Below, in pieces: positions 15,864 through 36,685 of a stretch of 64,000 nt of DNA. A model generated the notes under the pieces. That model had not been told where the DNA came from. It did no database searches and saw nothing but the letters and a program-made list of their open reading frames with translations. Within the stretch, counting starts at the first letter, position 1, and each line of letters begins with the position of its first letter. Origin of the DNA: Candidatus Moraniibacteriota bacterium (lineage in GTDB: Bacteria; Patescibacteriota; Minisyncoccia; Moranbacterales; UBA1568); the NCBI GenBank assembly GCA_016699425.1, contig CP064975.1, positions 526,098 through 590,097 of the forward strand, written 5' to 3'. A program made the position numbers and the translations under genes.

Positions 15864-18569
15864 CTACTTCCCATGACACTTTTTGTACTTCTTGCCGCTG
15901 CCACAGGGGCAGGGGTCGTTCCGGCCGACTTCAGCCGCATTGTGGATGGGTGACTGGGGCTCGGACGGTTTGACCTTCTGTTCTTTGCCCTCGGGACTGA
16001 CACCCGCGAACTGCGGGATGGTGTCCGACGCGCCCTTGTATTCGACGGCTCGCGGGACGGACGAGGTGACACCCGGATGGAGCGGCGTGATCTTGAACAA
16101 GGTGACCAGATAGGTCTTGCGCACCGTATCCATGAGTCCGACAAAGAGGTCATAGGCCTCGCGCTTGTACTCGATCAAGGGATCGCGTTGACCATAGCCG
16201 CGCAGCCCGATGCCCTGACGCAGATAGTCGATTTCGTCGAGATGATTCATCCACAGCGTATCGAGCGACTGAAGCAGGATGAGCCGCTGCAGCCGGTTCC
16301 AATCATTCTCGCCGATCGTCACTTCCTTCACGGCAAAGGCCCGCTTCGCTTCGCCGATAAGATACTCGGAGATAGCAGACTTTTTCTCGGGGTCAGTCTT
16401 CGATCGGTCCTCGCGGATACTCTCGAGTTTCGTCCGGGCCGCCTTTTCATCGAGCTCGGTGAAAAGACTGTTTGCCTCCCCTACAATATCGGTTAGATTC
16501 CACTCGCCCTCATCGCCGGCTGTATGGAAGCTGACGACGCGCTCAAATTCATCACTGACCAAACCGAGCGTCGTATCGCGATACTCGGTGGTCCGGAGCC
16601 CCTCGACGCGTTTCTTGTAGACGACTTCACGCTGTTTGTTCATCACATCGTCATAGTCGAGGACGTGTTTGCGGATATCGAAGTTGTAGCCTTCGATCTT
16701 GGACTGAGCGGATTCGATCGTCTTGGAGACCAGGCCGTTTTCGATCGCTTCATCGTCCGGCAGGCCCAAGCTCGTCATCATGCTCTTCATCCGATCCCCG
16801 CCAAAACGCCGCATCAGTTCGTCCTCGAGCGAGACATAAAACTGCGAGACGCCCGGATCCCCCTGACGACCAGCCCGGCCCCGCAGCTGATTGTCGATGC
16901 GCCGCGCCTCGTGCCGCTCACTGCCGATGATCATCAGTCCGCCGAGTGCCTGCACACCGTCCCCGAGCTTGATGTCGGTCCCGCGACCAGCCATATTCGT
17001 CGCGATCGTCACCGCGCCCTGCTGCCCGGCACCGGCGACGATCTGTGCTTCCTTCTCATGATTCTTCGCATTCAGGACCAGGTGCGGCACCCCCTCATGA
17101 GCGAGAAGTGCGGCGAGATATTCGGACTTCTCGATCGCGATGGTCCCGATGAGGACCGGCTGCCCCGTCGCATGGACTTCCTTCACCCGCGCGGCGATGG
17201 CCTTAAACTTCGCTTCCTCGGTCTTGTAGATGACATCCGGCAGGTCGCGCCGCACCATCGGCCGATGCGTCGGGATCTCGGTCACGTCGATCTTATAGAC
17301 TTTGGCGAATTCCTCGGCCGAAGTGGACGCAGTACCGGTCATGCCCGCCAGCTTGTCGTAGAGGCGGAAATAGTTTTGGAATGTGATGGTCGCCAGCGTC
17401 CGGCTCTCGCGCTGCACCGCGACGTGCTCCTTGGCTTCGATCGCTTGGTGCAGGCCCTCACTGTAGCGGCGGCCCGGCATGAGGCGACCCGTGAAGTCAT
17501 CGACGATGATCACCTCGCCGTCCTTCACCACATAGTCGCGGTCGAGCTTGAAGATGATATGTGCCTTGAGCGACTGCTCCAGATGATGGACGTACTGCAC
17601 ATTGCCACTCGCATAGATATTCTCCATCCCGAGGAGTTTCTCGACATGCTCGATACCAGCATCAGTCAGTGTGACCACCTTCATCTTTTCATCGATGGTG
17701 TAGTCCCCGCCCGCATCGTTATGCGAGTCCGCTGACGAAGCGTTTCGGGCGGGCTCTTCTACCGCTTTGAGCCGTGGGACGATCCCCGCAAAGCGTTCAT
17801 AGAGCTTGGTCGATTCGGTATCTGGGGCAGAAATGATGAGCGGGGTCCGCGCCTCGTCAATGAGGATGGAGTCAACTTCATCGACGATGGCAAAGTGGAG
17901 TTCACGCTGCACCTTCTCCTCCAGACTCGCCACCATGTTGTCACGCAGATAGTCGAAGCCGAACTCATTGTTTGTCCCATAGGTGATGTCACAGGCATAG
18001 GCTTCGCGACGACTGATCGGGAGCAGGTTTTCCATCTCGACTGACACGGCATCGATATCAGTAGACTTCGGCTCAAAGCGATACGATGCTCCCTGACCGA
18101 GGATGCAGGCCGTCGACAGCCCGAGGAAATGATACACTCGGCCCATCCAATTGGCATCGCGCTTGGCCAGGTAATCATTCACCGTCACGACATGCACGCC
18201 CTTCCCCGTGATAGCATTCAAATAGATGGGCAGGGTTGAGGTGAGGGTCTTACCTTCGCCAGTCTTCATCTCGGCGATGGTCCCGCGATGGAGCACGATG
18301 CCACCGACGAGCTGGACATCATAGTGACGTTCACCGATCGCACGGCGGGCGGCTTCACGCACGACCGCATACGCCTCGGGCAACAGATCATCGAGCGCTG
18401 TCCCCGCCGCGAGCCGCTGCCGAAATTCAGCTGTCTTGGCTTGCAGGGCCTGATCCGACAGAGCAGTCGTGGCCACATCGAAGCCATTGATCGCTTCGAC
18501 GAGCGGCCGGATCTTGGCAATTTCTCGTTCATTGGAACCGAAGAGCTTTTGGAAGAAAGACATAGGCAA
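15864..18569 (-). CDS. secA: Preprotein translocase ATPase SecA
   Basis: 901 aa with DEAD motor, preprotein-binding and helical scaffold domains, and a C-terminal zinc-binding tail [14 protein letters not shown]. Confidence 0.95.
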
Positions 18570-20572: not shown

Positions 20573-21337
20573 TCAACTCCCAGCGATCGTATCGCGCTCT
20601 CGGCAGTAGCGCTCGATCAGGGCCAATTGCTCCGGCGTATTGATCCCGAGTCCTTCGATCGGATCCTCGATCGTATAGACGGCGACCGTATGACCATCGT
20701 CACGAGCGAACTGGATCATATCAGTGAGATACAATTCATGCGCCGCATTATTATCATTTAACCGGTCGAGCGCGTCCCAGAGCCACGCAGCATCAAAACA
20801 ATAGTAGCTCGTATTCACTTCACGGATGGCGCGTTCGACCTCGGTCGCGTCCTTGTACTCGACGATACGGTCCACGGCCCCATCCGCACCGCGCACGATA
20901 CGACCGAAATGTGCGAACTGAGCATTGTCTCCGTCAAAGTCCGGGACGACCACACTCGCGAGCACGACCGTGGCGCCCGTTTCGGCGAGAGTCGAGAGCA
21001 TCCGTTCAAACGTCGCGGTCGAGATAAGCGGATGATCGCCTGGCGTCACGAGGACGCGCGTCACCCCCAATGTCTGCAGTGCCTCGCGGGCGCACCGGAC
21101 AGCGTGACCCGTCCCAAGTTGCTCGGCCTGGTGGACATAGCTAACCCGATCTCCGAGGGCGGCCATCACCTGCTCCCGGCCGTGACCAACGACGACCACC
21201 GGCTTCTCAACCAATGACCGCGTATTGCGCAGAATTTGCTCGATGATGGGTACTCCCTGCACCGGATGCAGCACCTTGGGGAGATCCGACCCCATCCGGG
21301 TTCCTTTGCCCGCCGCGAGTATGACGATTTGATTCAT
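20573..21337 (-). CDS. glmU: UDP-N-acetylglucosamine pyrophosphorylase (GlmU N-terminal uridyltransferase domain only; no left-handed beta-helix acetyltransferase domain)
   Basis: ILAAGKGTRMGSDLPKVLH, AEQLGTGHA, VEYKDATE and YLTD motifs are colinear with the E. coli GlmU N-domain. The ORF ends at the inter-domain linker. Confidence 0.8.
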   Translation of the reverse strand: MNQIVILAAGKGTRMGSDLPKVLHPVQGVPIIEQILRNTRSLVEKPVVVVGHGREQVMAALGDRVSYVHQAEQLGTGHAVRCAREALQTLGVTRVLVTPGDHPLISTATFERMLSTLAETGATVVLASVVVPDFDGDNAQFAHFGRIVRGADGAVDRIVEYKDATEVERAIREVNTSYYCFDAAWLWDALDRLNDNNAAHELYLTDMIQFARDDGHTVAVYTIEDPIEGLGINTPEQLALIERYCRERDTIAGS

Positions 21338-21339
21338 AG
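21285..21339. repeat. 55-bp perfect direct repeat (copy A) containing the glmU start codon and first 17 codons
   Basis: Identical to 22881..22935. Similarity continues in diverged form for ~25 bp more. Confidence 0.85.
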
Positions 21340-21439
21340 GTCTAGGGACGATCCTCCACTTTGATAACGAGTAAATACCCGAGTGCTCTCGTGAAACCAA
21401 TTTCTGCCCATCATACTGCCAATCCCCTGTAGGGTAAGA

Positions 21440-22153
21440 CTATCTATCAACACGAGACGAAACCGCTCGAGCTCGGAGGAGAAATACGGTTTCCGCTTTG
21501 AGCTGATTTTTCACAAATGCTTTTTGCTGCTCATCAATCAGCTCGCCCAGACCCGCGAGCAGTGCGGTCTCTGGGATACGCTCGATGAAACTGGCACACG
21601 TTTCAAGATACTCCGGGACTGAAACGATAGCGTATGCCTTGAGTACCGCAGCATCGATATCCCACCCCTGCTTCAGAAAAAAATATACATCAAACAGATC
21701 ACGAGCAGCAAATTTTTTCCGCTGTATCAGCGCTACAAGTTTCGCCGAGAGCATCGAAGTCTTCGTCATCACGAGCGCCGCTATCCCCAGATAACTTTTC
21801 ATCTCATAGGTCGCACCGATGTTCCGCGTGTTGATTTCCACCTTGATCTGATGCTCCCCTGTACTGTATGAAAGAGCGAAGAAGATGGTGGCGAACTTCT
21901 GCTGTTCGTCTTTGATCTCACCGTAGCGCTCGAGAATCTGGCGAATCTTTCGAAAAATCAGCTCCCGGTTTTCGTTCGAATCATCAAGCAGATCAAAATC
22001 AAGATCCACCGAGAAACGAGGCAGCTCATAGAAGAGGAGAGCGGCGGTACCACCTTTGAATCCCAAAAAGGACGAAATAGACACATCAGAATAAATGTCT
22101 TTTAAGATCTGCGTCATGATAAGCTTATGCTTGGCACTATCGAGGGTGGGCAT
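21440..22153 (-). CDS. AbiEii-type nucleotidyltransferase toxin (DUF1814-like), type IV TA system
   Basis: FLGFKGGTAALLFYELPRFSVDLDFDL…DLFDVYFF. Paralogous (~45% identity) to 29848..30543. The start is approximate. Confidence 0.7.
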   Translation of the reverse strand: MPTLDSAKHKLIMTQILKDIYSDVSISSFLGFKGGTAALLFYELPRFSVDLDFDLLDDSNENRELIFRKIRQILERYGEIKDEQQKFATIFFALSYSTGEHQIKVEINTRNIGATYEMKSYLGIAALVMTKTSMLSAKLVALIQRKKFAARDLFDVYFFLKQGWDIDAAVLKAYAIVSVPEYLETCASFIERIPETALLAGLGELIDEQQKAFVKNQLKAETVFLLRARAVSSRVDR

Positions 22154-22715
22154 ACTCTTGCATATATCTCTCCAAAACCTTTTCAAGTCTCTTACTCTTG
22201 TAGAGCGGTACGATCGTCTGACAACGTTTCCAGTCTATCCCACGGAGATTGTCGAAATAGTAATCCGGAAACAGATAGAGCCGATCGAGAAACGCCCGTT
22301 CCGGGATCGCCTCAGAGAAATATCCCCGATCCACTATCCCTGCCGGATTACCGAGAATGTCATCTCGCAGTTTTCGGTAGACGATTTTCTGACCAGCGAC
22401 CACGATCTCGCGAGAGAGATAGCTCGCAATAAAAATGGAATCATAGTACTGGAAGGTGACACCCGCACGAGCCAGGACGGTCTCGAAACTCACGTATGCC
22501 GGGGTGGAGATGCGCACCGCCAGTTCGCACCGATCGTATGTTGCATCCTTTGCAAAGACCCCTCGACGCAAACGGATGAGCTTCCCCGTCCTGACATAGT
22601 ACGCGAGCTTGGATTTGAGACTGTCCATCGACTTGGTACCACTGAGAAGAGCGATCTCTCGACTCGTGAAGACCGTTTGTTTGGACCCATAGAGAGCGAC
22701 GAGAAACCCGTCCAT
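22137..22715 (-). CDS. AbiEi-type antitoxin/transcriptional regulator
   Basis: N-terminal wHTH with TSREIALL…GKLIRLRRGVFA (the G.L.R…RGVY signature). It lies immediately upstream of and overlapping the AbiEii gene. Confidence 0.7.
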   Translation of the reverse strand: MDGFLVALYGSKQTVFTSREIALLSGTKSMDSLKSKLAYYVRTGKLIRLRRGVFAKDATYDRCELAVRISTPAYVSFETVLARAGVTFQYYDSIFIASYLSREIVVAGQKIVYRKLRDDILGNPAGIVDRGYFSEAIPERAFLDRLYLFPDYYFDNLRGIDWKRCQTIVPLYKSKRLEKVLERYMQEYAHPR

Positions 22716-22880
22716 AAGTATATAGCCTATAGGTAATAATTTTTCTTACCTTCAGTTTACTATAAACCTAGACATTGTCAAGCCCTCCCCACCGTCAAGC
22801 TACTCCCGCAGTACATACCAGCAATCACCACTCGCCAATACCCAAGCGTTCCCTTTCCCCGCCTCAGAACCTTGGGCGTC

Positions 22881-22935
22881 TCCGACCCCATCCGGGTTCC
22901 TTTGCCCGCCGCGAGTATGACGATTTGATTCATAG
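22881..22935. repeat. 55-bp perfect direct repeat (copy B): remnant duplicate of the glmU 5' end
   Basis: Encodes MNQIVILAAGKGTRMGS, then diverges (SETPKVLRRG versus SDLPKVLHPV) and stops. It is a decaying displaced copy. Confidence 0.8.
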
Positions 22936-23036
22936 ATTCAGCCGTTTCCGCTCAGTCAATCCTCGCTCAGTCCTCTCCCACAATACCGAAATCCTCCGCC
23001 GAACACAAACCCGTGTGGGTCCGGCGGAGGTTGGGG

Positions 23037-23921
23037 TTATTCTGTCGGGGTGGGCGCAGGTGGCGTAGTGACTGCATCAGGGGCCACCCCAGAACCCTGG
23101 GCTTCAGGCGATATCGGCGCTCCTTCGCTCGGTGTGGACGCTATGTTTGGGACTTCCGGCACGGTGACTGGATCGGTCGGAGGCGGAATCACGACGGCAG
23201 CGTCCGATGGTGTCGAGGGTATCTCGGGAGCTATTTCAGGAGCGATCTCAGGGATTGCCTCCGGCAGCAGCGGGACCGCAGTGTCTGATCCCCCGGTGAT
23301 CGCGTCTATTTCCGGTGCTTGTATCGGTGCCGCAGCACCAGTCGACACGAGGGTCAAATCCGAAAATATGTCCGCATCATTCCAACCGATTCCGGGCGCG
23401 GGATAGGGCGCCTGCCACGCGGTGAAAGGAAAGTGAAGTGAACAGGACAGTCCAGCTGCGAGCACTGTGTCCGTCGGCAGTGAAACGATGAAGAGCCACG
23501 GTTCAGTCTCCCCCGCCGAGAGCAAACTTCCATCCACGAAGCCGAATCCGGCGACATTCCCTGCATACTTGGTCGAGCCATCTCGGAGGGCTGACAGCTG
23601 CAGCGCATCACAAAGCGCTGCATCCCCAGTCGCAGAGACCGTCGAACGATACAGAAGGGCACTCGTCCCCTGATTCTTCACCAGACCACCAAAATTGACA
23701 CTCCCGCCAGACGGAAGCGCCGTGTCACCGGTCGGATTGGTCAGTGTGTCTTCGGTCGCCAGATCGATACTCCCCCCATGCAGGGTATTCCCCCCTGACT
23801 TGGCTTCACTGGTGAAGACTGACCAGGTATCATGCGTCACCACCACGGTGAACGCGAGACCGAGGAGCACAAACGCTCCCAGACGGATTCCTTTCTTGAT
23901 GCTTGGTTTTCGGGCTTCCAT
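23037..23921 (-). CDS. Secreted protein with a SipW-cognate-type signal peptide and a Pro/Ala/Thr-rich C-terminal tail (TapA-position gene of the locus)
   Basis: N-terminus KKGIRLGAFVLLGLAFTVVVTHDTWSVFTSEAKSGGNTLHGGSIDL. C-terminal PEIAPEIAPEIPSTPSD…TPPAPTPTE repeats. Confidence 0.65.
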   Translation of the reverse strand: MEARKPSIKKGIRLGAFVLLGLAFTVVVTHDTWSVFTSEAKSGGNTLHGGSIDLATEDTLTNPTGDTALPSGGSVNFGGLVKNQGTSALLYRSTVSATGDAALCDALQLSALRDGSTKYAGNVAGFGFVDGSLLSAGETEPWLFIVSLPTDTVLAAGLSCSLHFPFTAWQAPYPAPGIGWNDADIFSDLTLVSTGAAAPIQAPEIDAITGGSDTAVPLLPEAIPEIAPEIAPEIPSTPSDAAVVIPPPTDPVTVPEVPNIASTPSEGAPISPEAQGSGVAPDAVTTPPAPTPTE

Positions 23922-23935
23922 ACGCTCCTTGTAGA

Positions 23936-24591
23936 CTAGACAATTTTCCGCCTCCGAACCGGCACCGGTGGTGGTGTGAATACCGGTCGGGATGGTTGCG
24001 GGCGAGCATTGGTACGCGGATCCGAAAAGGTCAAACGACGCGTCATGACTTTTTCTTCGACGTTCACTTCTGAATGCTCGACAGATTTCTTCCGCGCGAG
24101 CCGCCGGACCTCTTGGACGATCGACCAGGCCTCGCTGAGGATGATCAGGACCGCGGGCAAGACAATGAGCCAGATGAAACCGGACTTGGTCTGCGCATAC
24201 GCGACTGGATAGCCGAGGTAAGGAATCGCGAAGTAAGTCTTGCCGACGATTTCTCGCGGTGTCACGGTCGTCGGATCCGACTCCTCATTAGCATCCCCCT
24301 TCGTCTGATACCGTAGTCCGGCCTCGGTGACCCGTTTGTCGACGATGCGGTGCGTGACGGACTGCTTGTCACTGGTCGCCACCGTCACGATGTCCCCACG
24401 CCATAGTCACTCGCCGCTCGAACCAGGATGAGGCTTCCCGTATGCAGCGTCGGTTCCATCGAACCCGAACGGACGACGAAGAGCTTCAGCATGTTCGGCA
24501 AGGGCAAGAAGGACGAAGCCATCACCAGGACGAAGACGATGACGACTCCCGCCATGACTCCCTGGAGGATGGTACCGAGTCGCTTCAGCAT
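23936..24591 (-). pseudogene. SipW-like type I signal peptidase (S26, archaeal/ER-type), split by a 1-nt frameshift at a G4 run
   Basis: Upstream ORF 24385..24591 carries SGSMEPT and ends …SDYGVGTS*. The next frame continues (G)DIVTV…VTHRIV…TKGDANEESD, the box C-E motifs. The shift is at + strand CCCC 24394-24397. Confidence 0.7.
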
Positions 24592-24606
24592 AGTGGACGG
24601 TGGAGA

Positions 24607-26064
24607 TTAGGGCGCGAACGGTGTCGGATTATTGCGAATCTGTTCGACTTCGAACGAGACGTCCGCCTTGAAGACATCCGTCTGCGCTTCATTGCCGGTA
24701 TCGACGGGCAGATCCCAACCAATACCGAAGTAGTACGTCGTCGAGCCGACCAGACGACCATCGGCGGCCAGCCCATTGCAGAGTCCGTAATTGGTGTGGC
24801 CATCAAGGACTGTACAGCTATGTGCACTGTATGCGGCTGCCAATCCCTGCCAGATATTGTGCGTTTCACTCGGCGTATTGATCTCTCCGGGTGTGACGAG
24901 CACCGGTTCGCCCTCCTGCTGGATATTGTCACCTTCGTCGACGTCGATGCCTTTGCCCTGGAAGCCAGGTGTCGCACCTTCATCCAACCAGATGAAAAAA
25001 TTCAGATTCGAGCGCAAATCCCCGAGACCGAGTCCAGGTACTTGGCAGACACCGGGGCCTTCGGCGACTATTTCGGAACTGGTGCAAGTATTGTCATCAT
25101 CCGCCGTCACCGTGACATTCATCCGGCCCCAAGCATCATTGTCATAAACATGGAGAGAAACCGTGTCTTCACCCACGTCTCCGGGCTTCACATCGGCAAA
25201 GTTGAAGAACTTGTGCGTCGGACCGAGGTCGGTAAGCGTCCAGGTACCATCACATGGCGTCCCGATCAGGTCACCACTGGCAGTCGCCGGACATGCGAGC
25301 TCGTGCACGTCGACCGCATCGAGGAAAGTCCCGAGCGAATTTTCTGTGCCGAGATCCGCGAATGAGATCTCAGTCGTGGCACCGGTCGCAAAGAAATCAT
25401 ACGTGTGTGGCGTCCAGGCGATTGCTCCCCCGCCCGCCGTGGACACTGTATCGAGCAGTACACCATTGGCCTTCACCTCTAGAACATTTTCACTCGCGGC
25501 CGTATTCGGTCGCGGTGAGTACTGGAATGAGAGCCGATACTTCTTGCCCGCAACCGTCGGGATAGACTGCTTGATGCGGATCGAGGCGGGTTCCCCGGTC
25601 TGCGGATCGCTCGGTCCTCCCCAGTCGCTATCGAGCTCCGTATACTGGTCTCCTTCAGCAGCAGCTCCGAGCACACCCTCATGGTATTCGATTTTGGCGA
25701 GCGCAGGTCGCCCACCACCGGATGTCACCCACTGTACATCCCAGGCCAAGCCGCCCGTACTATTGTCGAAGATCTGCCATTGATTCGGGTCCGTCACTTC
25801 GGGATTCTCGAACCCACCATTCGTAATCAGATTGCCACCTGTCGGCGTGCAGGTGCCCGGCAGCTGCCAGGTATTGCCATTTTCCCCCGGCGTACAGACG
25901 AGCCCATTGTAATGCGCTTCGCTGTCCACCTTCAGATCCAGCGCACCGGCGGTGAAGGTGTTGCCGACCGAGGTCTCGGTATCCGAGAAGAACGAATACG
26001 TCCCGCCCGCGACCGCCGCCACGGCGACGAGGATGATGAATGAACTTTTCGCGACTTTCCACAT
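24607..26064 (-). CDS. TasA/camelysin-like secreted protein with SipW-cognate signal peptide (paralog 1, 485 aa)
   Basis: MWKVAKSSFIILVAVAAVAGGTYSFFSDTETSVGNTFTAGALDLKVD. Shared motifs FFNFADVKPGDVGEDTVSLHV and DVSFEVEQIRNN. Confidence 0.75.
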   Translation of the reverse strand: MWKVAKSSFIILVAVAAVAGGTYSFFSDTETSVGNTFTAGALDLKVDSEAHYNGLVCTPGENGNTWQLPGTCTPTGGNLITNGGFENPEVTDPNQWQIFDNSTGGLAWDVQWVTSGGGRPALAKIEYHEGVLGAAAEGDQYTELDSDWGGPSDPQTGEPASIRIKQSIPTVAGKKYRLSFQYSPRPNTAASENVLEVKANGVLLDTVSTAGGGAIAWTPHTYDFFATGATTEISFADLGTENSLGTFLDAVDVHELACPATASGDLIGTPCDGTWTLTDLGPTHKFFNFADVKPGDVGEDTVSLHVYDNDAWGRMNVTVTADDDNTCTSSEIVAEGPGVCQVPGLGLGDLRSNLNFFIWLDEGATPGFQGKGIDVDEGDNIQQEGEPVLVTPGEINTPSETHNIWQGLAAAYSAHSCTVLDGHTNYGLCNGLAADGRLVGSTTYYFGIGWDLPVDTGNEAQTDVFKADVSFEVEQIRNNPTPFAP

Positions 26065-26131
26065 ACTCTTTCTTTACGGATTATTCTTTCTGTTGGAGAG
26101 GAGCCTTTGCTCCGATGCTTGGACTGGAGGG

Positions 26132-27457
26132 TTACGGCGTGACACCGGTCACACTGATATTGTCGATATAGGCATGATTGGAAGCGTTTTGTCCGGCCAT
26201 GGTGAAGCGGAACATCACGCTCGCCTTGTTGTCAGCCGCAGGCGAGAGGGAGAAGGTCTTGGTCGTCCAGGGGGTTTCGCCAGTAATGAACTCGAGGGTC
26301 GTCCAGGAACTCCCGCCATCGACTGAATATTCCACCTTCAACGTTTGCGGATCGACTGGCCCAGAGACATCATCCGTCTTGCGATCGTATTTCAGAGTGA
26401 TGTCGTGGTAGCCGAGCGTGCTGAAGCTCGGGGTCGTGAGATCCTCGTTGTGATTGTTCGCGTTGCTGCTGCCGTCGAGGTCGGCATTCTTGGTACACGC
26501 CTCGACTGAGTCGCTCTGACCACCCCGATGCTTCCACTTCTTGCGCCAGCAAGTGTTGTATCCCTGATCGCCCGGCTTGGAGCAGTCGCTGAAATCTTCG
26601 GCAAAGAGGGTCGAAGTCGTCGGCGGCGCAGGCGGTTCTTCGGTACTCCCACCACACTGGAAGGAATTGTTGCGCGCCTGCGCCACACTGAAGGAAACAT
26701 CCGCGGTGATTCCATCGCTCTGCACGATGTTTCCGACCGCCGCGCCATCACAGGCGAAGCCCGTCCCACGCACGAGCGGCCCATTGGTACTCCCTGCCAG
26801 TTTGCCTTTGCCATCCTGCGCTTTCGGTGTCGCCGCCAAGGTGCCGAAACACCAGGCCTTGCCGATATACTTGGTCACTTCCGGCACCAAAGGACCCGAT
26901 CCGCCCCAGATATTGTGACTGGCATCCGCGATCGGCCAATTGCTCCCATCAAAGATATCCTTCACCAGGCCTTGTTTGAAAATCGATTCGCCTGTCTCAT
27001 ACACATTGTCCCCATCGTCCGCCCAGAAAGAGAAGTACAAATGGTTCTGCAGTTCGCCATCATTCGTTCCAGTCGTCGGATCGACGGCGACTTCCGGCTC
27101 AGGCTGGCCGTTCTCGGGCGTCCCGGTCAAGTTGACCGCCATGCAGGTCCAGGCTTTGTTGTTCTTCACATGGAGCGATATAGTGTCTTCGCCGATGTCC
27201 CCTGGTTTCACGTCTAAAAAGTTGAAGAACAGTTTGCCCGCGAGCTTGCCCAATTGCCACGAGGTCGCCGGGCTGGCCACCAATTTCCCATCGTCATCGG
27301 TGACATAGGACTCATTGTCCACCTTCAGCTCGATCACACCCGAGGCGAACGTATTGCCCACCGACGATTCCTGATCGACGAAGAAAGAATATGTCCCGGC
27401 ACCGGCAGCCGCTGCTACCACGAGTACTGTGAAGAGTCCTTTGGTTATCTTCCACAT
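26132..27457 (-). CDS. TasA/camelysin-like secreted protein with SipW-cognate signal peptide (paralog 2, 441 aa)
   Basis: MWKITKGLFTVLVVAAAAGAGTYSFFVDQESSVGNTFASGVIELKVD. LFFNFLDVKPGDIGEDTISLHV. DVSFSVAQARNN. Confidence 0.75.
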   Translation of the reverse strand: MWKITKGLFTVLVVAAAAGAGTYSFFVDQESSVGNTFASGVIELKVDNESYVTDDDGKLVASPATSWQLGKLAGKLFFNFLDVKPGDIGEDTISLHVKNNKAWTCMAVNLTGTPENGQPEPEVAVDPTTGTNDGELQNHLYFSFWADDGDNVYETGESIFKQGLVKDIFDGSNWPIADASHNIWGGSGPLVPEVTKYIGKAWCFGTLAATPKAQDGKGKLAGSTNGPLVRGTGFACDGAAVGNIVQSDGITADVSFSVAQARNNSFQCGGSTEEPPAPPTTSTLFAEDFSDCSKPGDQGYNTCWRKKWKHRGGQSDSVEACTKNADLDGSSNANNHNEDLTTPSFSTLGYHDITLKYDRKTDDVSGPVDPQTLKVEYSVDGGSSWTTLEFITGETPWTTKTFSLSPAADNKASVMFRFTMAGQNASNHAYIDNISVTGVTP

Positions 27458-27537
27458 ATACGGCGACGTTATAAGTTATCGTGTTTTCCCTCCCTCGCAC
27501 CACCCAATTGGTGATGCGAAGTGAGGAAATCACGAGA

Positions 27538-29079
27538 CTAGTTCTCGAAGTCAGTTACTTCGCCGTCAAATTCAATCCAATCGACGAAACTGGTCTCACC
27601 AATCGGTCCAGGATGTCCGACGCGGACACCAAAGAATGAGTCAGTCGAGCGCGTTTCGGCATTTGGATAGTTGGCCAATACATCAGCCCACGTACGCGAA
27701 GTAGTACCAGGAGTTGTTCCGGTAATATCCACCAAACCCACTGGCCAGGTCGGACCAGAGTAGGTCCAATTACCCGCCAAGGCGTCTACCGTCGTCCAGG
27801 TATTCACAGCCACGCCGGTCGGCACCTGCACCAAGCGACGCTGCCACGTATCGCTGTTATTGAAGTCAACATTGAAGTGGAGGTAAGGCGTCTGTGAAGA
27901 AGCCGAGGCATCATAGATCCGATACTTCAAAGATCCGATGTCCGACAGTTTCACGTCCTTGTACTTGTAGGTCGCGATGTTGTAGCGGGGATTGCCGATG
28001 TTAGTTCCGATGTAGAGCGGATCGGTGCCGTTATCGAGCACAAAGCGTGCTGCACCAACAGTATCCGGACCAGCGACAATTTCATTTGCACCACCAGTAC
28101 CTGCAAACTGGTTTGTGGTCATGATGAACGCTGCGTCATTCGAATCATTGTGAAAGAGCCAGCTGTTCGGAGCGGCGATGAGCTCCGGAAGGCTCTCGGC
28201 CAAGTCGCCCTGGCGCACGACACGTGAACAGGAGAAATTCGGATTATTGCGCGCCTGCTCCACTCGGAAGGCAACATTCGCCACAAGCGAGTCTGTCTGA
28301 GCGACATTGCCCATGGTCGAGCCATCACAAGTAATGACACCAGCTGCAGCCGTCATATTGCCTGCACACCAGGCGAGACCAATATAGCTCGTACTGCCAC
28401 CAGCGAGTGCGCCAGTCCCAGCATCTGCCAGCCGATATGTCCGGCCGCCGAGCACATCGCTCGCAGAACCGACACCATTCGAGAAGAGCGGCAACTCATT
28501 GGCTTGCCAAATATTGTCTCCCTCAGCAGTATCAACATTTGACCCCTGAAGACCCGGCGTCGTACCCGTGTCTGCCCATGCGAAGAAGTTCAGGTTCTGC
28601 GCGAGCTCGCCATCGAAGTTATTGCCCGCGTTCTCGACCGCGTCCCCGGCGTCCGTCTCCGGATCAACTGTACTGACATCATCATTCTTCGTGATATCGA
28701 TATCCACACACGCGAAGGCATCATTGGAATCGACATGAAGCGAGATGGTATCCTCACCACTATCTCCCGGTTTCACATCAGCAAAGTTGAAAAACTTTTG
28801 TGCACCGAGGTTGGTCGCTGCCCATGTACCGTCACACGCACTCCCGATAACCGGGTACTGAGGGACAGTAGCTGTTGCGCTTGGTTCAAGCTGCCACAAG
28901 CCCGCAACACAGACGGCATTGTTATAGTGCTGCTGACTATCGACGGTTAGGTCAATCGCGCCGGCGGTGAAGGTATTGCCGGTCGATGTCTCGGTATCCG
29001 AAAAGAACGAGTAGGTCGCACCACCCACGGCGACGGCCACCGCGAGCGCCACGAGGCCACTCTTCCAAATCTTTTGCAT
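27538..29079 (-). CDS. TasA/camelysin-like secreted protein with SipW-cognate signal peptide (paralog 3, 513 aa)
   Basis: Start set at MQKIWKSGLVALAVAVAVGGATYSFFSDTETSTGNTFTAGAIDL. KFFNFADVKPGDSGEDTISLHV. NVAFRVEQARNNP. The tracked ORF extends to 29196. Confidence 0.75.
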   Translation of the reverse strand: MQKIWKSGLVALAVAVAVGGATYSFFSDTETSTGNTFTAGAIDLTVDSQQHYNNAVCVAGLWQLEPSATATVPQYPVIGSACDGTWAATNLGAQKFFNFADVKPGDSGEDTISLHVDSNDAFACVDIDITKNDDVSTVDPETDAGDAVENAGNNFDGELAQNLNFFAWADTGTTPGLQGSNVDTAEGDNIWQANELPLFSNGVGSASDVLGGRTYRLADAGTGALAGGSTSYIGLAWCAGNMTAAAGVITCDGSTMGNVAQTDSLVANVAFRVEQARNNPNFSCSRVVRQGDLAESLPELIAAPNSWLFHNDSNDAAFIMTTNQFAGTGGANEIVAGPDTVGAARFVLDNGTDPLYIGTNIGNPRYNIATYKYKDVKLSDIGSLKYRIYDASASSQTPYLHFNVDFNNSDTWQRRLVQVPTGVAVNTWTTVDALAGNWTYSGPTWPVGLVDITGTTPGTTSRTWADVLANYPNAETRSTDSFFGVRVGHPGPIGETSFVDWIEFDGEVTDFEN

Positions 29080-29500
29080 AGGTTTGGTGTTATGGTTTAT
29101 GCTGCTCCGCTCGATCCCGGCCTCCGCTGCACATCGACCCATCCGCTGCTCCAGTACAGTACCGAAAGCCAGAGGATCCACGCAGTTCTCTCGCACAGCT
29201 TCCGGAGTAACCCGAAATCGGCTCGAGAGAATGAGGGAACGGAATTTGAGAGAAGCAGATTTCGCTATTTATGACTTCGACGACTCGCACTCGACCTGTG
29301 CTTTGATGTTGCAATTGATAAACGACAAGCGCCCTCCTCGCTCCTATCGTTGCTTTTTTATTTTTTTTCTTCTCCTCGAAAGTTTTGTCGAGTTGAGAAA
29401 TATGTTTGCCCTCCCACAAACACTCATTGTTTCAACAATAGAGCCGATTGAAAATAAGTCAAGCAAATAAAAAATTTTCAGAACCAAACAATGTGCGACA

Positions 29501-29545
29501 AACAAAAAATGCGGAGACGCCAGACGTACTAGCCTCTCCGCAAAA
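29501..29545 (-). terminator. Intrinsic terminator (minus strand) downstream of the AbiEii gene. It is the left copy of a ~90-bp diverged direct repeat.
   Basis: Minus strand: GCGGAGAGGCTAGTACGTCTGGCGTCTCCGC followed by ATTTTTTGTTT. Confidence 0.6.
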
Positions 29546-29847
29546 CGGCCTTGTGTCCTCAGGGAGGGAGGACGTGCACTCGGCCGAAGTCAGAAAGTTG
29601 AGAGTGAGGGCATCTAGGAGAGTGCTCATTCCAACACATCCCGACGGGACCGAGGTTTCGGTTCCCATTTTTCGGGATACTGGTCAAACGGTCGATACAC
29701 CGTGAACCTCACCGGTTCAGGTTCAGGCGTGGCCTCGCTCCAGAGAAATTCTGTACTCAGGTCCACCGGAAAACCACAACGTTACAATCACCACCGCTAT
29801 GGTAATCTCACACGCACGCTCTGCAATACGGGAAAATTTTCGGAATA

Positions 29848-30543
29848 TCATTTCTCACTCTCTCCCAGAGTTCTCAACAAGAATATTGTCTCGGTTCGTA
29901 ACTTTGCGCGTGCCCAATCTTTCTGTGATTCCGTCAGTAATTCCCCGAGTCCATCGAGAACATGCCGATCACTCATTTTCTCTAACTGTTCCACACACAG
30001 CGCCACAAGTCCTGCAAATGACATGCCCGAACGAGATTCAACAATCGCCTTATTAATCGGCCAATGATTTTTCGCAAAGAAATAGACATCAAATATATCT
30101 CGACTCGTTTTACCAACACGTTCATACATCGCCATCAATTTATGCGCAAACATATCTTCTTGTGCCATGACCAGCAGTGAGATACCCAGTATCGTTTTTA
30201 CCTCATACCGGGAACCGAAATTTCTGCGATTGACCTCAATCTTGATATGCTGAGACTGTTTGTTGTATGAAATCACGGAAATGAGATTGAAACGCTTGTT
30301 TCGAGAATCAATCATCACCCCATAATTTCTGGCAATAGTGTTTATTCCCTCGAACACTGACTGTTCTTTAGTTTCATCCAAAAGATCGAAGTCCAAATCG
30401 ACTGAATGACGATTCAATCCATAGAATAACAAAGCGGCTGTACCGCCCTTAAAGCCGAGGAATGGAGCCAGTGTTGTATCGGAGTAAATGTCTTTTAAAA
30501 TCTGTAACAATATACTCCTGTGCTTCGAATAGTCCAATGTCAT
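29848..30543 (-). CDS. AbiEii-type nucleotidyltransferase toxin (second, AT-richer copy)
   Basis: FLGFKGGTAALLFYGLNRHSVDLDFDL…DIFDVYFF. 4-nt ATGA overlap with the upstream AbiEi gene. Confidence 0.75.
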   Translation of the reverse strand: MTLDYSKHRSILLQILKDIYSDTTLAPFLGFKGGTAALLFYGLNRHSVDLDFDLLDETKEQSVFEGINTIARNYGVMIDSRNKRFNLISVISYNKQSQHIKIEVNRRNFGSRYEVKTILGISLLVMAQEDMFAHKLMAMYERVGKTSRDIFDVYFFAKNHWPINKAIVESRSGMSFAGLVALCVEQLEKMSDRHVLDGLGELLTESQKDWARAKLRTETIFLLRTLGESEK

Positions 30544-31166
30544 ACGTTTCCTCGATAATGCTCGAAATATTGTTGTACTTTTTTCTCCATTTGTTTGTTA
30601 TGATATATTGGCAAAATTTCAAATACTTTGTCCCAGTCCAATACGTCCAAATGATCGAAATGATAGTCTTTGCTCACACAAACTCGATCCAGAAAAGCGC
30701 GCTCTTTCGTCGCGACGGAGTACCCTTCCGAATGATTGATACCAGCTGGGTTGCTCAAAATATCTGTTTTCATCCGCACAAAAGAAATTTTTTGTCTATC
30801 GACGACCAGTTCTCTCGAGACATATGACGCGACAAAAATATTCCCATAATACTGAAAATTCACTCCAGTACGAGTCAATACGGTCTCGAAGCTGATGTAG
30901 GATGGGGTATATATCCGAGTCGCCAACTCAAAACGATTATACTCTCTGTCCTTCGCATAGACACCACGATGGATGCGGACCAACTTTCCCGCCTTCGCAT
31001 ATTTACTCAATCGAACACACAGTGCATTTTCTGCTGCTTCACCCCACAACAAAGCAATATCTCTCGTGGTAAAGACCGTTTTCGGAGAGCGAAGCAATGC
31101 TTCCAGGTATTCCCCTTTTTCTGGCTTTCTATTCATATATGCACTGTATATTACCTTAAAACTCAC
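30540..31166 (-). CDS. AbiEi-type antitoxin (second copy)
   Basis: TTRDIALLWGE…GKLVRIHRGVYA. Confidence 0.75.
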   Translation of the reverse strand: MSFKVIYSAYMNRKPEKGEYLEALLRSPKTVFTTRDIALLWGEAAENALCVRLSKYAKAGKLVRIHRGVYAKDREYNRFELATRIYTPSYISFETVLTRTGVNFQYYGNIFVASYVSRELVVDRQKISFVRMKTDILSNPAGINHSEGYSVATKERAFLDRVCVSKDYHFDHLDVLDWDKVFEILPIYHNKQMEKKVQQYFEHYRGNV

Positions 31167-31511
31167 TTGCAGTTCAATTATACACTAATATGGTAGTATT
31201 TGCAAGTGAAATAGTTCCTCGTTCACTATTGGTCTTTCATAAAGAAATCTTTTCCTTTTCTATCATGCAACGGAGGTAGTCTCCCGCACACGAGCGTGGA
31301 TATGGGAAAGTTTTCGGAAGTTTATAATAGGATCGTTTGCCATTGGTGACTTTTCTGCGATTGCGAGAGCTTCGCACCCCGCTATAGCCCAGATACCCGA
31401 GACACGATGCGAGCGTCAGTCCCGAAATAATGAGTCCGACAGAGAACCAGCGCTGTGGCGTGGACTCGATAGTCAATTTGATGTTGTATCAGCCATCGTC
31501 ATCTGTGGCTA

Positions 31512-31553
31512 GAAAAAAAGCGGAGACGCCAGGCGTACTGGCTTCTCCGCAAA
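31512..31553 (-). terminator. Intrinsic terminator (minus strand) after the Fic operon. It is the right copy of the diverged direct repeat.
   Basis: Minus strand: GCGGAGAAGCCAGTACGCCTGGCGTCTCCGC followed by TTTTTTT. ~90% identical to the 29501..29545 element. Confidence 0.6.
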
Positions 31554-31631
31554 ACGGACCAATAGTCCCAGGAGCAGGACGTGTTGGCCGAGGTCAGACT
31601 GTGGTGTCCAGCGGAAGGCGGCTCAGGTGAA

Positions 31632-32081
31632 CTACGCGAACAGGCTCAGCTGCCAACCACTGTAGTCAGTGTCGCCCTGTTGCCGCCAATTGTCAACCGC
31701 ATCATCTTGGCCCATCTGCGCTGACCACTGCAACGCCGCGTCTCCATGTTCGGAGACAGAGAACGGCGCCGAACCGTCGGTGAAAAGCAGTCCCTGGTGC
31801 AACGGAATCGCACTCGCCAGAGCGCACTCGGCCGAACAACAGTCGCCATTCATGTTGGCATCCCGCTCGGCCCGAGTCATCGAGAACCCGCAGACAGGAC
31901 ACGTCACGGTCGTGGGCAGATCATTCTCGACCGTATCCGTCGGGTCATCCAAATCAACTGGTTGAGTTTCTATCACAATTGCCTCCATTCGGTAAGGTAC
32001 AGGAGAAAACCAAAAACTACACCCCAGTTTACTCCACGGGGCCTCAGGCTGTCTACTGCCGGAGCAGACCCGTCCGCTCAT
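31632..32081 (-). CDS. Hypothetical Cys-rich (zinc-ribbon-like) protein, translationally coupled downstream of the Fic gene
   Basis: The start codon directly abuts the Fic stop (32082). CPVCGFS…CCSAEC motif. An alternative start is MEAIVIE at 31988. Confidence 0.45.
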   Translation of the reverse strand: MSGRVCSGSRQPEAPWSKLGCSFWFSPVPYRMEAIVIETQPVDLDDPTDTVENDLPTTVTCPVCGFSMTRAERDANMNGDCCSAECALASAIPLHQGLLFTDGSAPFSVSEHGDAALQWSAQMGQDDAVDNWRQQGDTDYSGWQLSLFA

Positions 32082-32957
32082 CTACTCACAACCGATCTTC
32101 CACACTCCCTTTTCGCGAAAAGCAGGGATATTTTGACGCCGTGCGGCATTCGATACCGCCGAAACCGATTTCCCCTGCTGCTTCGCATACACAGCGAGTG
32201 AGACGATCGGTTTCCCTTGCAAGTACGTGATCCGTTTATGAAGCGACTCTATCAACGCGAGCGAGAGCACCTTTTCCATCGTCTTCGTAATCTTTCGATC
32301 ACGGTAATCAGCGAACGCCTGATAATACATATCCTTTTCCTTGTCTCGAATGATAATAATCGGAAAGCCGAGACGCAGGAGCTGATAGGAGATGAGCACC
32401 CGACCGATCCGCCCGTTACCATCACAGAAAGGATGGATATTCTCGAAATCCAGATGGAAGCGAGCGATCTGGTCCAGAAAATAGGCACTCTGGTTGCTGC
32501 CCCGTTCTGTGATGAGCGACGCGACGAGCGACTGGACATGCTCGGGGGCTGGGGCGACATGTGTCCCCACACGGACATATTCCCCCCTCGTACGGAACCG
32601 GCCAGCGATGTCATCACGAATCCCGCCGATAAGCATCTGGTGCAAGAGGAGCATCAGGTCTTCATCCACTTCCTTCGCCTGCGATTTCTCACGGATGTAA
32701 TTGACAACCCGGGCCAAATTTTTTGCCTCAAATACTTCCCGGACCGAAACATCGCGCGAAACAGCAACATCGAGCAGGATTTTTTCGGTCTCCCGAAGAG
32801 TAAGCGTTGAATTCTCGATCGCATTCGAATTATAGACACTCTCTGGAATTTCCGCCTCATCCAATAAAATAAGGAGCGATTCCTTCCCCTTCTTGAGCGT
32901 ATCAAACTCTCGCTTGAGCGATTGGATGCGATCACGGATCGGCTTCGTTGTAGCCAT
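32082..32957 (-). CDS. Fic-family protein (AMPylase/Doc-like)
   Basis: Canonical Fic motif HPFCDGNGRIGR. Confidence 0.85.
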   Translation of the reverse strand: MATTKPIRDRIQSLKREFDTLKKGKESLLILLDEAEIPESVYNSNAIENSTLTLRETEKILLDVAVSRDVSVREVFEAKNLARVVNYIREKSQAKEVDEDLMLLLHQMLIGGIRDDIAGRFRTRGEYVRVGTHVAPAPEHVQSLVASLITERGSNQSAYFLDQIARFHLDFENIHPFCDGNGRIGRVLISYQLLRLGFPIIIIRDKEKDMYYQAFADYRDRKITKTMEKVLSLALIESLHKRITYLQGKPIVSLAVYAKQQGKSVSAVSNAARRQNIPAFREKGVWKIGCE

Positions 32958-33072: not shown

Positions 33073-34002
33073 TCAGAACCCAACGAGCTGGACTTCCTCG
33101 CGAAGCTGGATACCGAGCTGGTCGCGGACACGCTGCTTCACGACGGAAGCGAGCATGATGACGTCCTCGGCTGTGGCGGTACCGGTGTTCACGATATAGT
33201 TTGGGTGTTGGGGGCTGACCTGGGCGCCACCGATACGCTTGCCGCGGAGCCCTGCATGGTCGATGAGCCAACCGGCTGGCAGTTTGCCATCTTTGGGGAC
33301 CTTGGCCGTGTCGTGGGCGAATTCCTCGCGGAGTTGCTCATCCGAAACGAGTGGATTCATGAAAAACGATCCCGCACAACGCGCGCTTTGCGGATGCTTG
33401 GCTTCACGGACCGAAATTGTCTCCTCGGCGATCCGACCGAGTTCGGCGGCATTCCATTCCTCAAGCCGCAAGGTCGCCGAGAGGATGACGATCTCGGGAT
33501 GTGTTTTGAAATAGCTTTGCCGATACCCGAAGTCGCATTGCTTCATCGAAAATTCTCGGAGCATCTTGGCTTGACGGTCATACACTTTCACCGAGAGGAC
33601 ACTGTCCCGGATCTCGGCTCCGAACGCGCCCGCATTGCCGCGGATGGCCCCACCGAGTGAACCTGGGATACCCGCGAGCCGTTCCAATCCGGCAAGGCCA
33701 TGGCTGATCGCGAGCCGGACGATACTGAGGAGCGGTGCCCCCGCATCGGCGATGATGTCGTGACCACTGACCCGCGCCGAAGCATTGGCGACCCGGATGA
33801 CCAGCCCCCGGAAACCATGATCCGCGATGAGGAGATTGCTCCCACCAGAAAATACGAAGGTCTTCAGGGAATTGTCAGCAGCGTACTCGAGCGCTTCGAT
33901 GAGCTCCGCCACGGTCGTCACGGACGCGAAGAAATCGGCCGGTCCACCGATCCGAAAAGTCGAAAATGGGGCGAGAGGGACATCTCTCTCTACGGTGAGC
34001 AT
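33073..34002 (-). CDS. murB: UDP-N-acetylenolpyruvoylglucosamine reductase MurB
   Basis: FAD-binding domain with VFSGGSNLL, plus the C-terminal MurB domain. Confidence 0.9.
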   Translation of the reverse strand: MLTVERDVPLAPFSTFRIGGPADFFASVTTVAELIEALEYAADNSLKTFVFSGGSNLLIADHGFRGLVIRVANASARVSGHDIIADAGAPLLSIVRLAISHGLAGLERLAGIPGSLGGAIRGNAGAFGAEIRDSVLSVKVYDRQAKMLREFSMKQCDFGYRQSYFKTHPEIVILSATLRLEEWNAAELGRIAEETISVREAKHPQSARCAGSFFMNPLVSDEQLREEFAHDTAKVPKDGKLPAGWLIDHAGLRGKRIGGAQVSPQHPNYIVNTGTATAEDVIMLASVVKQRVRDQLGIQLREEVQLVGF

Positions 34003-34127
34003 AACAACGCAGCCCAGAACGGATTAGGAGAGCGGACCAGGCATCGGGATTGCCATCATGAGAAGAAAAGCACTACAACACAAAGCAGCAACGAAAACCC
34101 CGGCGATGAGCACGATGAGTTTTTTCT

Positions 34128-35555: not shown

Positions 35556-35572
35556 ACAGGGAAAACTATTGG

Positions 35573-36685
35573 CTAGTAGAGCGTCATGAGTCCACGGGCG
35601 ATTGCCTGGGCTGCATTGGGGTGATAGTAATACTTCTGGAGCGCTTCACCCATCGCGTGTGCCCGATCCGGGTGATTCACGACGTCCGCGATCACTTCCA
35701 TCAGGATATGACTGCCGAGATTGGCTTCCTCGATGACGACCGCGCCGCCGCGCCGAGCGATCTCATAGGCGTTCTCTCGCTGCTCATTGTTCGCCGCGGT
35801 CGACAAGGGCACGAGGATAGCAGGCTTGGCCAAGGCGGCGAGCTCGGCGATGGTCGAGGCACCGGCGCGCGAAATGACGACCGTCGCGAGGGCATAAACA
35901 TCGGCCAGTTCCGCTGCTGGAAGAAACGGCAGCGCGATATAGCCCTGTCCGGCTTCGAGCCCGAGCACTTGAGCATCGGCCTGCACTTTCATAAGATTGC
36001 GCCGCCCGGTGAGATGCATCACCTGATAGCCCGCCGCGAGGAGATCCGGCAGAATACGAACGACGCTCTTGTTCAAGACCTCGGCACCGAGACTGCCACC
36101 GATGACGGCGATGATCGGTCGCTCGACGGTGAAGCCGAGATTGGTCCTGCCGCGTTCGGCATCACCAGCGAGGATTTCTTCACGGATCGGATTGCCAGTC
36201 AGGGCGATCTTGTTGGCGGGGAAGAAACGCCGGGCCCGCTCATAGGCGATCGCGATACGTGACGCATAACGCGCGACCGTCCGATTGGCCCGACCAGCGA
36301 CTGCGTCCGAATCATGGATGAGGATCGGGATACGGTACAGCCAAGCCGCAAACGCGATGGGTACGGACGCAGCGCCCCCCTTGGAAAAGACAACATCCGG
36401 CATGAACCAGAGCAAATGCCAGAGTGCCTGCCCGAAAGCCGCCGGGAGCTTGAACAGATCGACGAAATTTTGCAGCGAAAAATAACGCCGCCACTTGGCC
36501 GTCGGAATAAACTTGCAAGGTATCCCGGCTTCCTCCATCGCGGTCGCTTCGAACTCGCCGCGCGAACCAATGAAGAGGAACTCGACATCGCCCTTGGTCT
36601 CTTTCACCAAAGCGCGCGCCACCGCAATCAGCGGAAACGTATGACCGCCGGATAGTCCGCCCGTGAGTACGACTCGTTTCGCCAT
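35573..36685 (-). CDS. murG: Undecaprenyl-PP-MurNAc-pentapeptide-UDP-GlcNAc GlcNAc transferase MurG
   Basis: GGLSGGHTFP and GGSLGAEVLN motifs. Confidence 0.9.
   Translation of the reverse strand: MAKRVVLTGGLSGGHTFPLIAVARALVKETKGDVEFLFIGSRGEFEATAMEEAGIPCKFIPTAKWRRYFSLQNFVDLFKLPAAFGQALWHLLWFMPDVVFSKGGAASVPIAFAAWLYRIPILIHDSDAVAGRANRTVARYASRIAIAYERARRFFPANKIALTGNPIREEILAGDAERGRTNLGFTVERPIIAVIGGSLGAEVLNKSVVRILPDLLAAGYQVMHLTGRRNLMKVQADAQVLGLEAGQGYIALPFLPAAELADVYALATVVISRAGASTIAELAALAKPAILVPLSTAANNEQRENAYEIARRGGAVVIEEANLGSHILMEVIADVVNHPDRAHAMGEALQKYYYHPNAAQAIARGLMTLY

Follow-up and report, generated by a model that had tools for sequence, protein, structure and literature searches.

A SipW/TasA-type locus with three enlarged TasA-like paralogs and a frameshifted signal peptidase gene in a Candidatus Moraniibacteriota genome

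Five closely packed genes on the minus strand of a Candidatus Moraniibacteriota genome form a locus of the SipW/TasA type. They occupy positions 23037-29079 of the 64,000-nucleotide stretch of DNA analysed here (assembly GCA_016699425.1, contig CP064975.1, positions 526,098 to 590,097), which is called the window and whose own numbering is used throughout. In order, the genes are P1 (27538-29079), encoding 513 residues from an ATG codon, P2 (26132-27457; 441 residues), P3 (24607-26064; 485 residues), a frameshifted sipW-like signal peptidase gene (23936-24591), and P4 (23037-23921; 294 residues, with a proline-rich tail). Successive genes are separated by 80, 67, 15, and 14 nucleotides, gaps that fit a single operon. 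The GC content (guanine plus cytosine) of the genes is 0.57, and that of the locus equals that of the genome. A longer P1 beginning at the GTG codon at 29196 was rejected, as the start MQKIWK is conserved and a relative carries an in-frame stop three codons before the ATG. The original prediction for this DNA had five genes on the minus strand with a short, proline-rich secreted protein at the end of the locus, and both points hold; it also took the four secreted-protein genes to be consecutive, which they are not, the peptidase gene separating P3 from P4.

The comparisons below make use of contig L075 (JBARUC010000005.1, GCA_049645545.1), which comes from an independent Candidatus Moraniibacteriota metagenome-assembled genome (MAG) and shares 98.9% identity with the window across 4.57 kb, of a related strain represented by four contigs, among them L001 and L003, whose P2 and P3 are 97 and 90% identical to those of the window, and of L005, a 79% relative, which is the one with the in-frame stop. 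P4 is identical (100%) to a protein from a Candidatus Moraniibacteriota MAG, and for P2 an exact-sequence search retrieves no record.

In Bacillus subtilis, folded TasA subunits polymerise into fibres by donor-strand exchange: residues 28-38 form the donor strand, and TapA supplies the first strand (PMC9674648). The description of the locus as "amyloid-like" in the original prediction is therefore outdated. Alignment of P1, P2, and P3 reveals three common motifs: an N-terminal GG(A/T)YSFF.D.E.S.GNTF..G..(D/E)L, an internal FFNF.DVKPGD.GEDT(I/V)SLHV, and, close to the C-terminus, (V/A)(S/A)F.V.Q.RNN. The internal and C-proximal motifs had been pointed out beforehand and are present in all three proteins. 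The N-terminal pattern had been assigned to four genes; it is found in P1-P3, and the N-terminus of P4, TWSVFTSEAKSGGNTLHGGSIDL, fits it poorly. Two curated models bear on these N-termini, TIGR04088 (SipW-cognate signal peptide, cutoff 19 bits) and PF12389 (Peptidase_M73, gathering threshold 22.5 bits). P1 and P3 pass both, with 26.5 and 27.3 bits against TIGR04088 and 28.7 and 31.1 bits against PF12389, a resemblance far beyond chance. P2 stays below the first (12.0 bits) and just below the second (21.5 bits), and P4 has no match to either. All these matches lie within the first 40-50 residues or so, and those to PF12389 span only profile positions ~5-53 of 196. P1 also matches the hidden Markov model (HMM) of the core family with an E-value of 7e-49.

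The core profile retrieves no sequence from the Protein Data Bank, and a tie to TasA at the sequence level requires Pfam or hhalign. Aligned by hhalign with a TasA sequence checked as identical to 8AUR, the core profile gives an E-value of 3e-5 and a probability of 73%. The alignment pairs GGTgAf..D..tSTGNTFAtGiIDL of the core with GGGTWAAFNDIK-SKDATFASGTLDL of TasA, that is, with its signal and donor strand (residues 22-50), so that a donor-strand sequence directly follows the SipW-type cleavage site. It also pairs NF.DvKPGD of the core with NLSNLKPGDK of TasA, the same correspondence as that drawn by eye in the original prediction. Under relaxed settings, the core segment VGNIVQSDGI.ADVSF.V.Q.RNN is additionally paired with MVQNKYQGNSIKLQFSFEATQWNG of TasA. 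When only the mature parts are compared, no signal is left between core and TasA (4%).

Structure prediction adds a comparison that covers the mature core. AlphaFold2 models of P2 have a mean confidence (pLDDT) of 79-80, and with the model of the P2 core the TasA fibre structure 8AUR ranks first in both structure searches, so that the predicted fold is a TasA-type jelly roll. With the full-length P2 model, Foldseek returns matches to the C-terminal jelly roll only (CBM22, reelin, CDTb), and TasA lies outside the top 50. In the monomer model, the mature chain begins with 18 low-confidence residues, which nevertheless include the invariant T22, S32, G34, N35, and G40, and the segment with the strongest conservation, judged over more than 60 homologues, coincides with the donor strand of TasA. 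This combination suggests that, as in TasA, the strand becomes ordered only inside a neighbouring subunit. We regard P1, P2, and P3 as very probably TasA-superfamily substrates of a SipW-type peptidase.

A cluster of acidic residues in P2, W145, D147, D148, G149, D150, N151, E154, and E157 (W-ADDGDN-YE-GE; window ~26987-27025), is invariant among 60 homologues, and P1 and P3 carry a variant, EGDNI.Q..E, at the same position. The cluster looks like a metal (Ca2+) site, and recalls the calcium-dependent cannulae of archaea. The numbers of cysteines in P1-P4 are mostly even, which suggests disulfides. Sortase anchoring was rejected, none of P1-P4 having an LPxTG motif.

The paralogs had been described as nearly twice the length of TasA. 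They are indeed long, and the length comes from added jelly-roll domains rather than from a bigger core: natural homologues of 255-300 residues match the first ~61% of P2, so the core itself measures ~250-270 residues, close to the size of TasA. In P2, the core (residues 1-272) is followed by a C-terminal jelly roll resembling choice-of-anchor-J and reelin subrepeat B domains (~304-436; NF038128, 33 bits for a cutoff of 30), and the structural neighbours of the full-length model also include a gingipain adhesin domain. In P3, the alignment places a DUF642/choice-of-anchor-C-like insert (~78-253) after the N-terminal strand and ahead of the FFNF..KPGD strand; its scores are 61 bits for TIGR04362, below the cutoff of 120, and 26.8 bits for DUF642, whose gathering threshold is 27. 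In P1, the core (~1-285) precedes a C-terminal domain of ~225 residues without a Pfam match, which belongs to a small unannotated family of 21 homologues, all hypothetical.

The body of P1 differs between related strains. The first 40 residues of P1 are 100% identical in the window and in L001, whereas identity falls to ~42% over the remainder, with unrelated C-terminal domains. At the DNA level, homology with L001 stops at 28949 and restarts exactly at the start of P2. Judged from this alignment, 27458-28949 (2391-4222 in L001) looks like a surface-subunit cassette that has been exchanged while the 5' end was conserved, the type of P1 in the window being the one found in L005. Separately, the window and L075 differ at 49 places, and about 23 of these, including all indels outside sipW, fall within ~110 nucleotides (25693-25801), in the DUF642-like insert of P3 (residues ~88-124). 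This may reflect either a local hotspot of variation in that display domain or noise from assembling a strain mixture.

The peptidase gene is split into two open reading frames. The first (24385-24591, 68 residues) contains SGSMEPT with the catalytic serine, and the second (23936-24388, 150 residues, in another frame) contains THRIV and KGDAN with the histidine and aspartate. These three motifs had been correctly noticed, and the frameshift had been overlooked: the gene is not one open reading frame in the window, and the fourth motif reported, GDIVTV, is readable only across the shift. DNA alignment with L001, L003, and L075 locates a one-base deletion on the minus strand at 24394-24397, where the window has a run of four G and its closest relatives have five. 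L001-L005 and L075 all encode an intact peptidase of 215-218 residues, and restoring one G in the window gives a protein of 218 residues. This repaired protein scores 99.9 bits against TIGR02228 (archaeal/ER-type signal peptidase I, S26B; cutoff 51.85), compared with 54.0 bits for the 3' fragment and 28.6 bits for the 5' fragment. It also matches NF046067, the Bacillus SipW equivalog model, over nearly its full length with 118.2 bits, below the cutoff of 190; by this profile score it is a SipW homologue and not an equivalog. Among solved structures, human SEC11A and SEC11C match it best. In the alignment, S44 (SGSMEP), H81 (THRIV), and D100/D106 (KGDAN/ESDP) correspond to SGSMEP, VHRV, and KGDNN/DD of SEC11A (7P2P). 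The catalytic residues of the S26 family are thus present, in the Ser-His(-Asp) form and not as the bacterial Ser-Lys dyad. Hydrophobic segments are found in the N- and C-terminal parts of the protein, which ends in a basic, proline-rich tail.

P4 has a divergent SipW-type N-terminus, a domain of ~130 residues with two cysteines extending to about residue 190, and a proline-rich tail of ~100 residues. An AAGGAG ribosome-binding site lies ahead of its gene, 14 nucleotides past the sipW stop. Searches of Pfam and NCBIfam give no match, TIGR04088 (E<=1) and PF12389 included. With N-terminal profiles, hhalign relates the P4 family to the core family with a probability of 98%; with the full profiles the value is 96%, for the N-terminal 90 columns only, which comprise the signal, the donor strand, and the first strands. 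The P4 family is also related to residues 22-88 of TasA (92.5%). Restricted to the mature part, hhalign gives no signal between P4 and TasA (1.7%), so the body of P4 is not to be called TasA-like from sequence. An exhaustive phmmer search of 1.84 billion proteins returns 220 representative clusters with the P4 domain, compared with two proteins for a k-mer-seeded search, and some of these relatives pass PF12389 and bear Ig-like or Lamin Tail Domain (LTD) stalks. With its donor-strand-like N-terminus and its gene next to sipW in the same operon, P4 is, by analogy, a candidate for a TapA-like minor or nucleator subunit.

The module is not confined to the window. P2 has more than 1000 homologues, the named ones all from bacteria of the candidate phyla radiation (CPR). 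A scan with one genome per species yields 69 loci, nearly all from Patescibacteria lineages (including Paceibacterota, Moraniibacteriota, Woesebacteria, Chisholmbacteria, Levyibacteriota, WWE3, and Campbellbacteria) and one from a haloarchaeon. Local HMM scans covered 75 sources; in 70 of them, one to four core genes in tandem are followed directly by a SipW-like open reading frame on their own strand. The search for syntenic loci proposed with the original prediction is thereby answered by 72 mostly Patescibacteria loci, in which one to four core paralogs are followed by SipW. One core copy is present in 15 of them, two in 30, three in 21, and four in 6; hence the three paralogs of the window are ordinary. 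A P4-like domain comes right after SipW in 42 of the 72 loci and is fused to the SipW C-terminus in another 6 (L019, L025, L030, L034, L049, and L063), 48 loci together; in the fusions, the P4-like part keeps its own signal and donor-strand motif. Fifteen loci have no detectable P4-like gene. Six SipW proteins from these loci, chosen for their long C-terminal extensions, were compared with Pfam, and each carries a C-terminal LTD (L013, L027, L028, L040, L059, and L064). Large P4-like proteins have this domain too, within their long stalks. It is unusual for a signal peptidase to be joined in one chain to its presumed substrate or partner. Overall, this cluster type is common in CPR bacteria and recognisable with existing models.

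Some loci of the scan fall outside this lineage by name. In the haloarchaeon Natribaculum breve (L073, CP095390.1, 3258877-3279122), a protein of 558 residues matches the CPR core HMM with an E-value of 1e-26, and a SipW-like peptidase is encoded 1.5 kb away on the other strand; it is the sole non-CPR locus of the pattern scan. Typical CPR modules also occur under MAG titles of Pseudomonadales, Gammaproteobacteria, or Bdellovibrionales (L026, L029, L032, L046, and L068). The SipW (E-value 2e-67) and P4 of L068 are near those of the window, and these five bins are probably mislabelled.

The reading that we favour, with moderate confidence for its chain of steps as a whole, is that of an operon for an extracellular polymer of the TasA superfamily. 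P1, P2, and P3 would leave the cell via Sec, and the dedicated Ser-His-Asp peptidase of SipW type would cut them after GG(A/T)YS, by analogy with the cut between TWA and AF in TasA. Cleavage would free the conserved N-terminal strand FF(S/V)D.E.S.GNTF..G.(I/L)(D/E)L. Following the TasA precedent, the freed strand would then enter the jelly-roll core of a neighbouring subunit by donor-strand exchange, giving a fibre. As the three donor strands are nearly identical, P1, P2, and P3 would likely polymerise into mixed fibres. Such a fibre would display probable glycan-binding or adhesive modules, namely the DUF642-like domain of P3, the choice-of-anchor-J-like domain of P2, and the unannotated domain of P1. 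P4 may act in a TapA-like manner: as a terminal subunit in sub-stoichiometric amount, it would provide the first strand or serve as an anchor of the fibre. What the data establish is homology, fold, catalytic residues, conserved gene linkage, and the frameshift; cleavage by SipW, polymerisation, mixed fibres, adhesion, and the part played by P4 are proposed. The core of the original prediction, a SipW/TasA-type locus with three enlarged TasA-like paralogs and a cognate archaeal/ER-type peptidase, agrees with the signal scores, the catalytic residues, and the predicted fold described above, and it withstood every refuting condition that had been set for it. Several observations weigh against the polymer reading. 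The structure models are of single chains, and we infer polymerisation by analogy. P2 falls under both curated signal and family thresholds, and TIGR04088 matches neither P4 nor its nine nearest relatives. A search of the core profile against all Protein Data Bank sequences with hmmsearch gives no match at E<=10, and the sequence similarity to TasA is limited to ~100 N-terminal residues. Between the mature parts of P4 and of the core family, hhalign finds no signal (0.3%). Finally, the frameshift in sipW leaves the system, as written in the window, without its peptidase.

Proteins with such signals might also be secreted or surface monomers, for example for glycan binding or scavenging, that use the SipW-type signal merely for export and processing and build no fibre. 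The likeness of the added domains to CBM22, DUF642, reelin-type, and gingipain adhesin jelly rolls would suit this view, as would the inferential status of polymerisation. A monomer, however, accounts poorly for the fact that the most conserved segment is the TasA donor-strand segment, disordered when the chain is modelled alone, or for the first rank of fibre-form TasA in both structure searches. Nor does it explain why the companion P4 shares the strand region alone, in parallel to TapA and TasA, and we consider it quite unlikely. Database names suggest two further functions. The Pfam name Peptidase_M73 would make P1-P3 camelysin-type metalloproteases, and PF12389 does match; the match, however, covers only the signal and first strands, the solved member of the family, TasA, is a structural fibre protein, and HExxH is absent from P1-P4, so that this highly improbable assignment was rejected. 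The JGI label [quoted passage not shown], carried by several homologues, would make them precursors of ribosomally synthesized and post-translationally modified peptides. This is barely credible for proteins of 441-513 residues with confidently folded beta-sandwich domains, encoded in an operon without modification enzymes.

A different question is whether the locus still works in this strain. If the frameshift is real, the substrates would no longer be matured, and the locus would be a decaying, non-functional remnant. The window stands alone with its four G, against five in five other contigs, and the assembly is not generally indel-ridden, since its ftsW, murG, murC, murB, and secA products are each colinear in one frame with the L005 proteins. 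Yet in the base-by-base comparison with the independent L075 contig, which has an intact sipW, the missing G is the sole indel in the gene; P1-P4 are all intact, with no further lesions; and assemblies commonly contain single-base errors in homopolymers. Decay appears unlikely, the deletion being either a homopolymer error or a lesion that has disabled the system of this strain.

Returning to the polymer reading, it may be carried one step further. The module of core proteins, SipW, and P4 might build the main surface filament, other than type IV pili, of episymbiotic CPR bacteria: a donor-strand fibre with a swappable glycan-binding domain on each subunit, nucleated or anchored by P4, that would mediate host attachment and host range. 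In this scheme, related strains would exchange the body of P1 while its signal and donor-strand cassette stays identical, and in some lineages the P4-like subunit would form a single chain with its own peptidase, or a SipW-LTD fusion would take the place of that subunit. We put this extension forward tentatively, as a possibility with rather less than even prospects.

The region upstream of P1 had been described as AT-rich, which composition bears out: GC content is 0.46 over 29080-29500 and 0.37 over 29300-29500, compared with 0.57 in the genes. A consensus scan detects a promoter-like site on the minus strand, TTGACT-16 nucleotides-TATTGT (29435..29462), ~355 nucleotides upstream of the P1 start codon. 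Five such sites are observed in the upstream region for 3.7 expected, which is not above chance, so the case for this one rests on conservation, both hexamers being kept in L005. Between the site and P1, on the same strand, lies a candidate 5' untranslated region (29080..29434), ~71% identical to L005 with several invariant blocks; the leader of ~400 nucleotides (29080-29482) is as conserved in L005 as coding DNA, and the in-frame stop of that relative marks it as non-coding. A riboswitch or other structured RNA is unsupported: Rfam gives no match within 22000-32000 at E<=1, an nhmmer search of all 76 loci with the leader as query recovers close relatives only and none of the more distant loci, and the folding z-score of -2.0 indicates weak predicted stability.

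The locus lies between murB/murC/murG/ftsW (33073-37991) and secA (15864-18569), as it does in L005, and has AbiEi/AbiEii cassettes of lower GC content on both sides, each bounded by direct repeats. It had been placed in an accessory island. The flanking cassettes agree with this, whereas the genome-like GC content, the murB-secA position shared with L005, and the conservation of the module across Patescibacteria do not; the module itself is a conserved part of the chromosome, and it is the flanks that resemble an island. Downstream, the AbiEi/AbiEii pair (21440-22715) is bracketed by an 86-nucleotide direct repeat (21254-21339 and 22850-22935, 86% identical). One copy of the repeat is the 5' end of a GlmU-like nucleoside triphosphate (NTP) transferase gene (20573-21400), so the cassette seems to have been inserted with duplication of the gene start. 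At this position, L001 has GH81 and glycosyltransferase genes. Upstream, the AbiEi/AbiEii pair (29848-31166) is bracketed by a 45-nucleotide direct repeat (29504-29548 and 31513-31557, 91% identical), which is terminator-like, with a GC hairpin and then a run of T when read on the minus strand. Beyond it, a Fic-domain protein (32082-32957) matches the PADLOC models SoFic and PDC-S04, and adjoins an open reading frame of 149 residues (31632-32081) without family. The Fic gene and the AbiE pairs make up a small defence or toxin-antitoxin cluster between murB and the fibre operon. Elsewhere in the window, two open reading frames (49438-50181 and 51395-52102; GC content 0.44-0.49) share the same near-N-terminal zinc-finger stretch, ...KKWSRHCPRCSSRETVKNGSQGYSHHYLCRACEHSFSR, and are probably a duplicated transposase gene of the insertion-sequence type.

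CPR bacteria, or Patescibacteria, are ultra-small, and many live attached to host cells. To our knowledge, their attachment is largely unexplained beyond type IV pili. If the polymer reading is true, a conserved TasA-type donor-strand fibre offers a testable candidate for an attachment or matrix structure of these bacteria, and would extend the TasA/SipW paradigm to a third major lineage, beyond Firmicutes and archaea. For the window alone, the outcome is mainly a well-supported annotation, together with a flagged frameshift in sipW.

Our literature searches found no study of a TasA/SipW system in CPR bacteria, and the closest described system is tapA-sipW-tasA of B. subtilis (8AUR/5OF1). There, too, an archaeal/ER-type signal peptidase is encoded beside its own substrates. 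The substrates share the N-terminus GGxT(W/Y)(A/S)/(A/F)F.D......(T)F..G.LDL, with the cleavage site after (A/S) and serving as the donor strand in TasA, as well as a jelly-roll core, a KPGD strand, and a C-terminal strand ...F.(F/V)..Q..N, and the companion protein shares the N-terminal strand region only. The differences are also clear. The gene order, which had been said to mirror that of B. subtilis, is reversed, the genes for the major subunits coming before sipW and that for the minor one after it. Three paralogous majors replace one, each with an extra inserted or C-terminal jelly roll. The CPR core is only ~16-18% identical to TasA, and has four to eight cysteines and an invariant DDGDN..E..E acidic cluster that TasA lacks. 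The peptidase scores 118 bits where the Bacillus equivalog requires 190, P4 has no detectable similarity to mature TasA, and the host is a CPR bacterium.

In archaea, TasA-related donor-strand filaments comprise the AbpA bundling pili of Pyrobaculum (7UEG), the Sulfolobus thread (7PNB), and haloarchaeal TasA-like proteins. Their sequence similarity to the CPR core is undetectable, and AbpA is processed by a generic signal peptidase, with no dedicated one nearby (PMC9245690). The haloarchaeal locus L073 encodes a core-like protein with a SipW-like peptidase nearby. For Patescibacteria themselves, Wang et al. (2022) list the phylum, in one sentence, among those with PF12389 proteins (PMC9245690). 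NCBIfam already names the P2 homologues P0085 and P0095, from MAGs of Minisyncoccia/Parcubacteria, "SipW-dependent-type signal peptide-containing protein" on the basis of TIGR04088. That name covers the 34-residue signal only, and leaves unrecorded the fold of the core, its display domains, the companion P4, and the conserved operon. The locus type is set apart from these systems by the modular display domains, the multiple paralogs, the conserved companion of P4 type, and the peptidase fusions.

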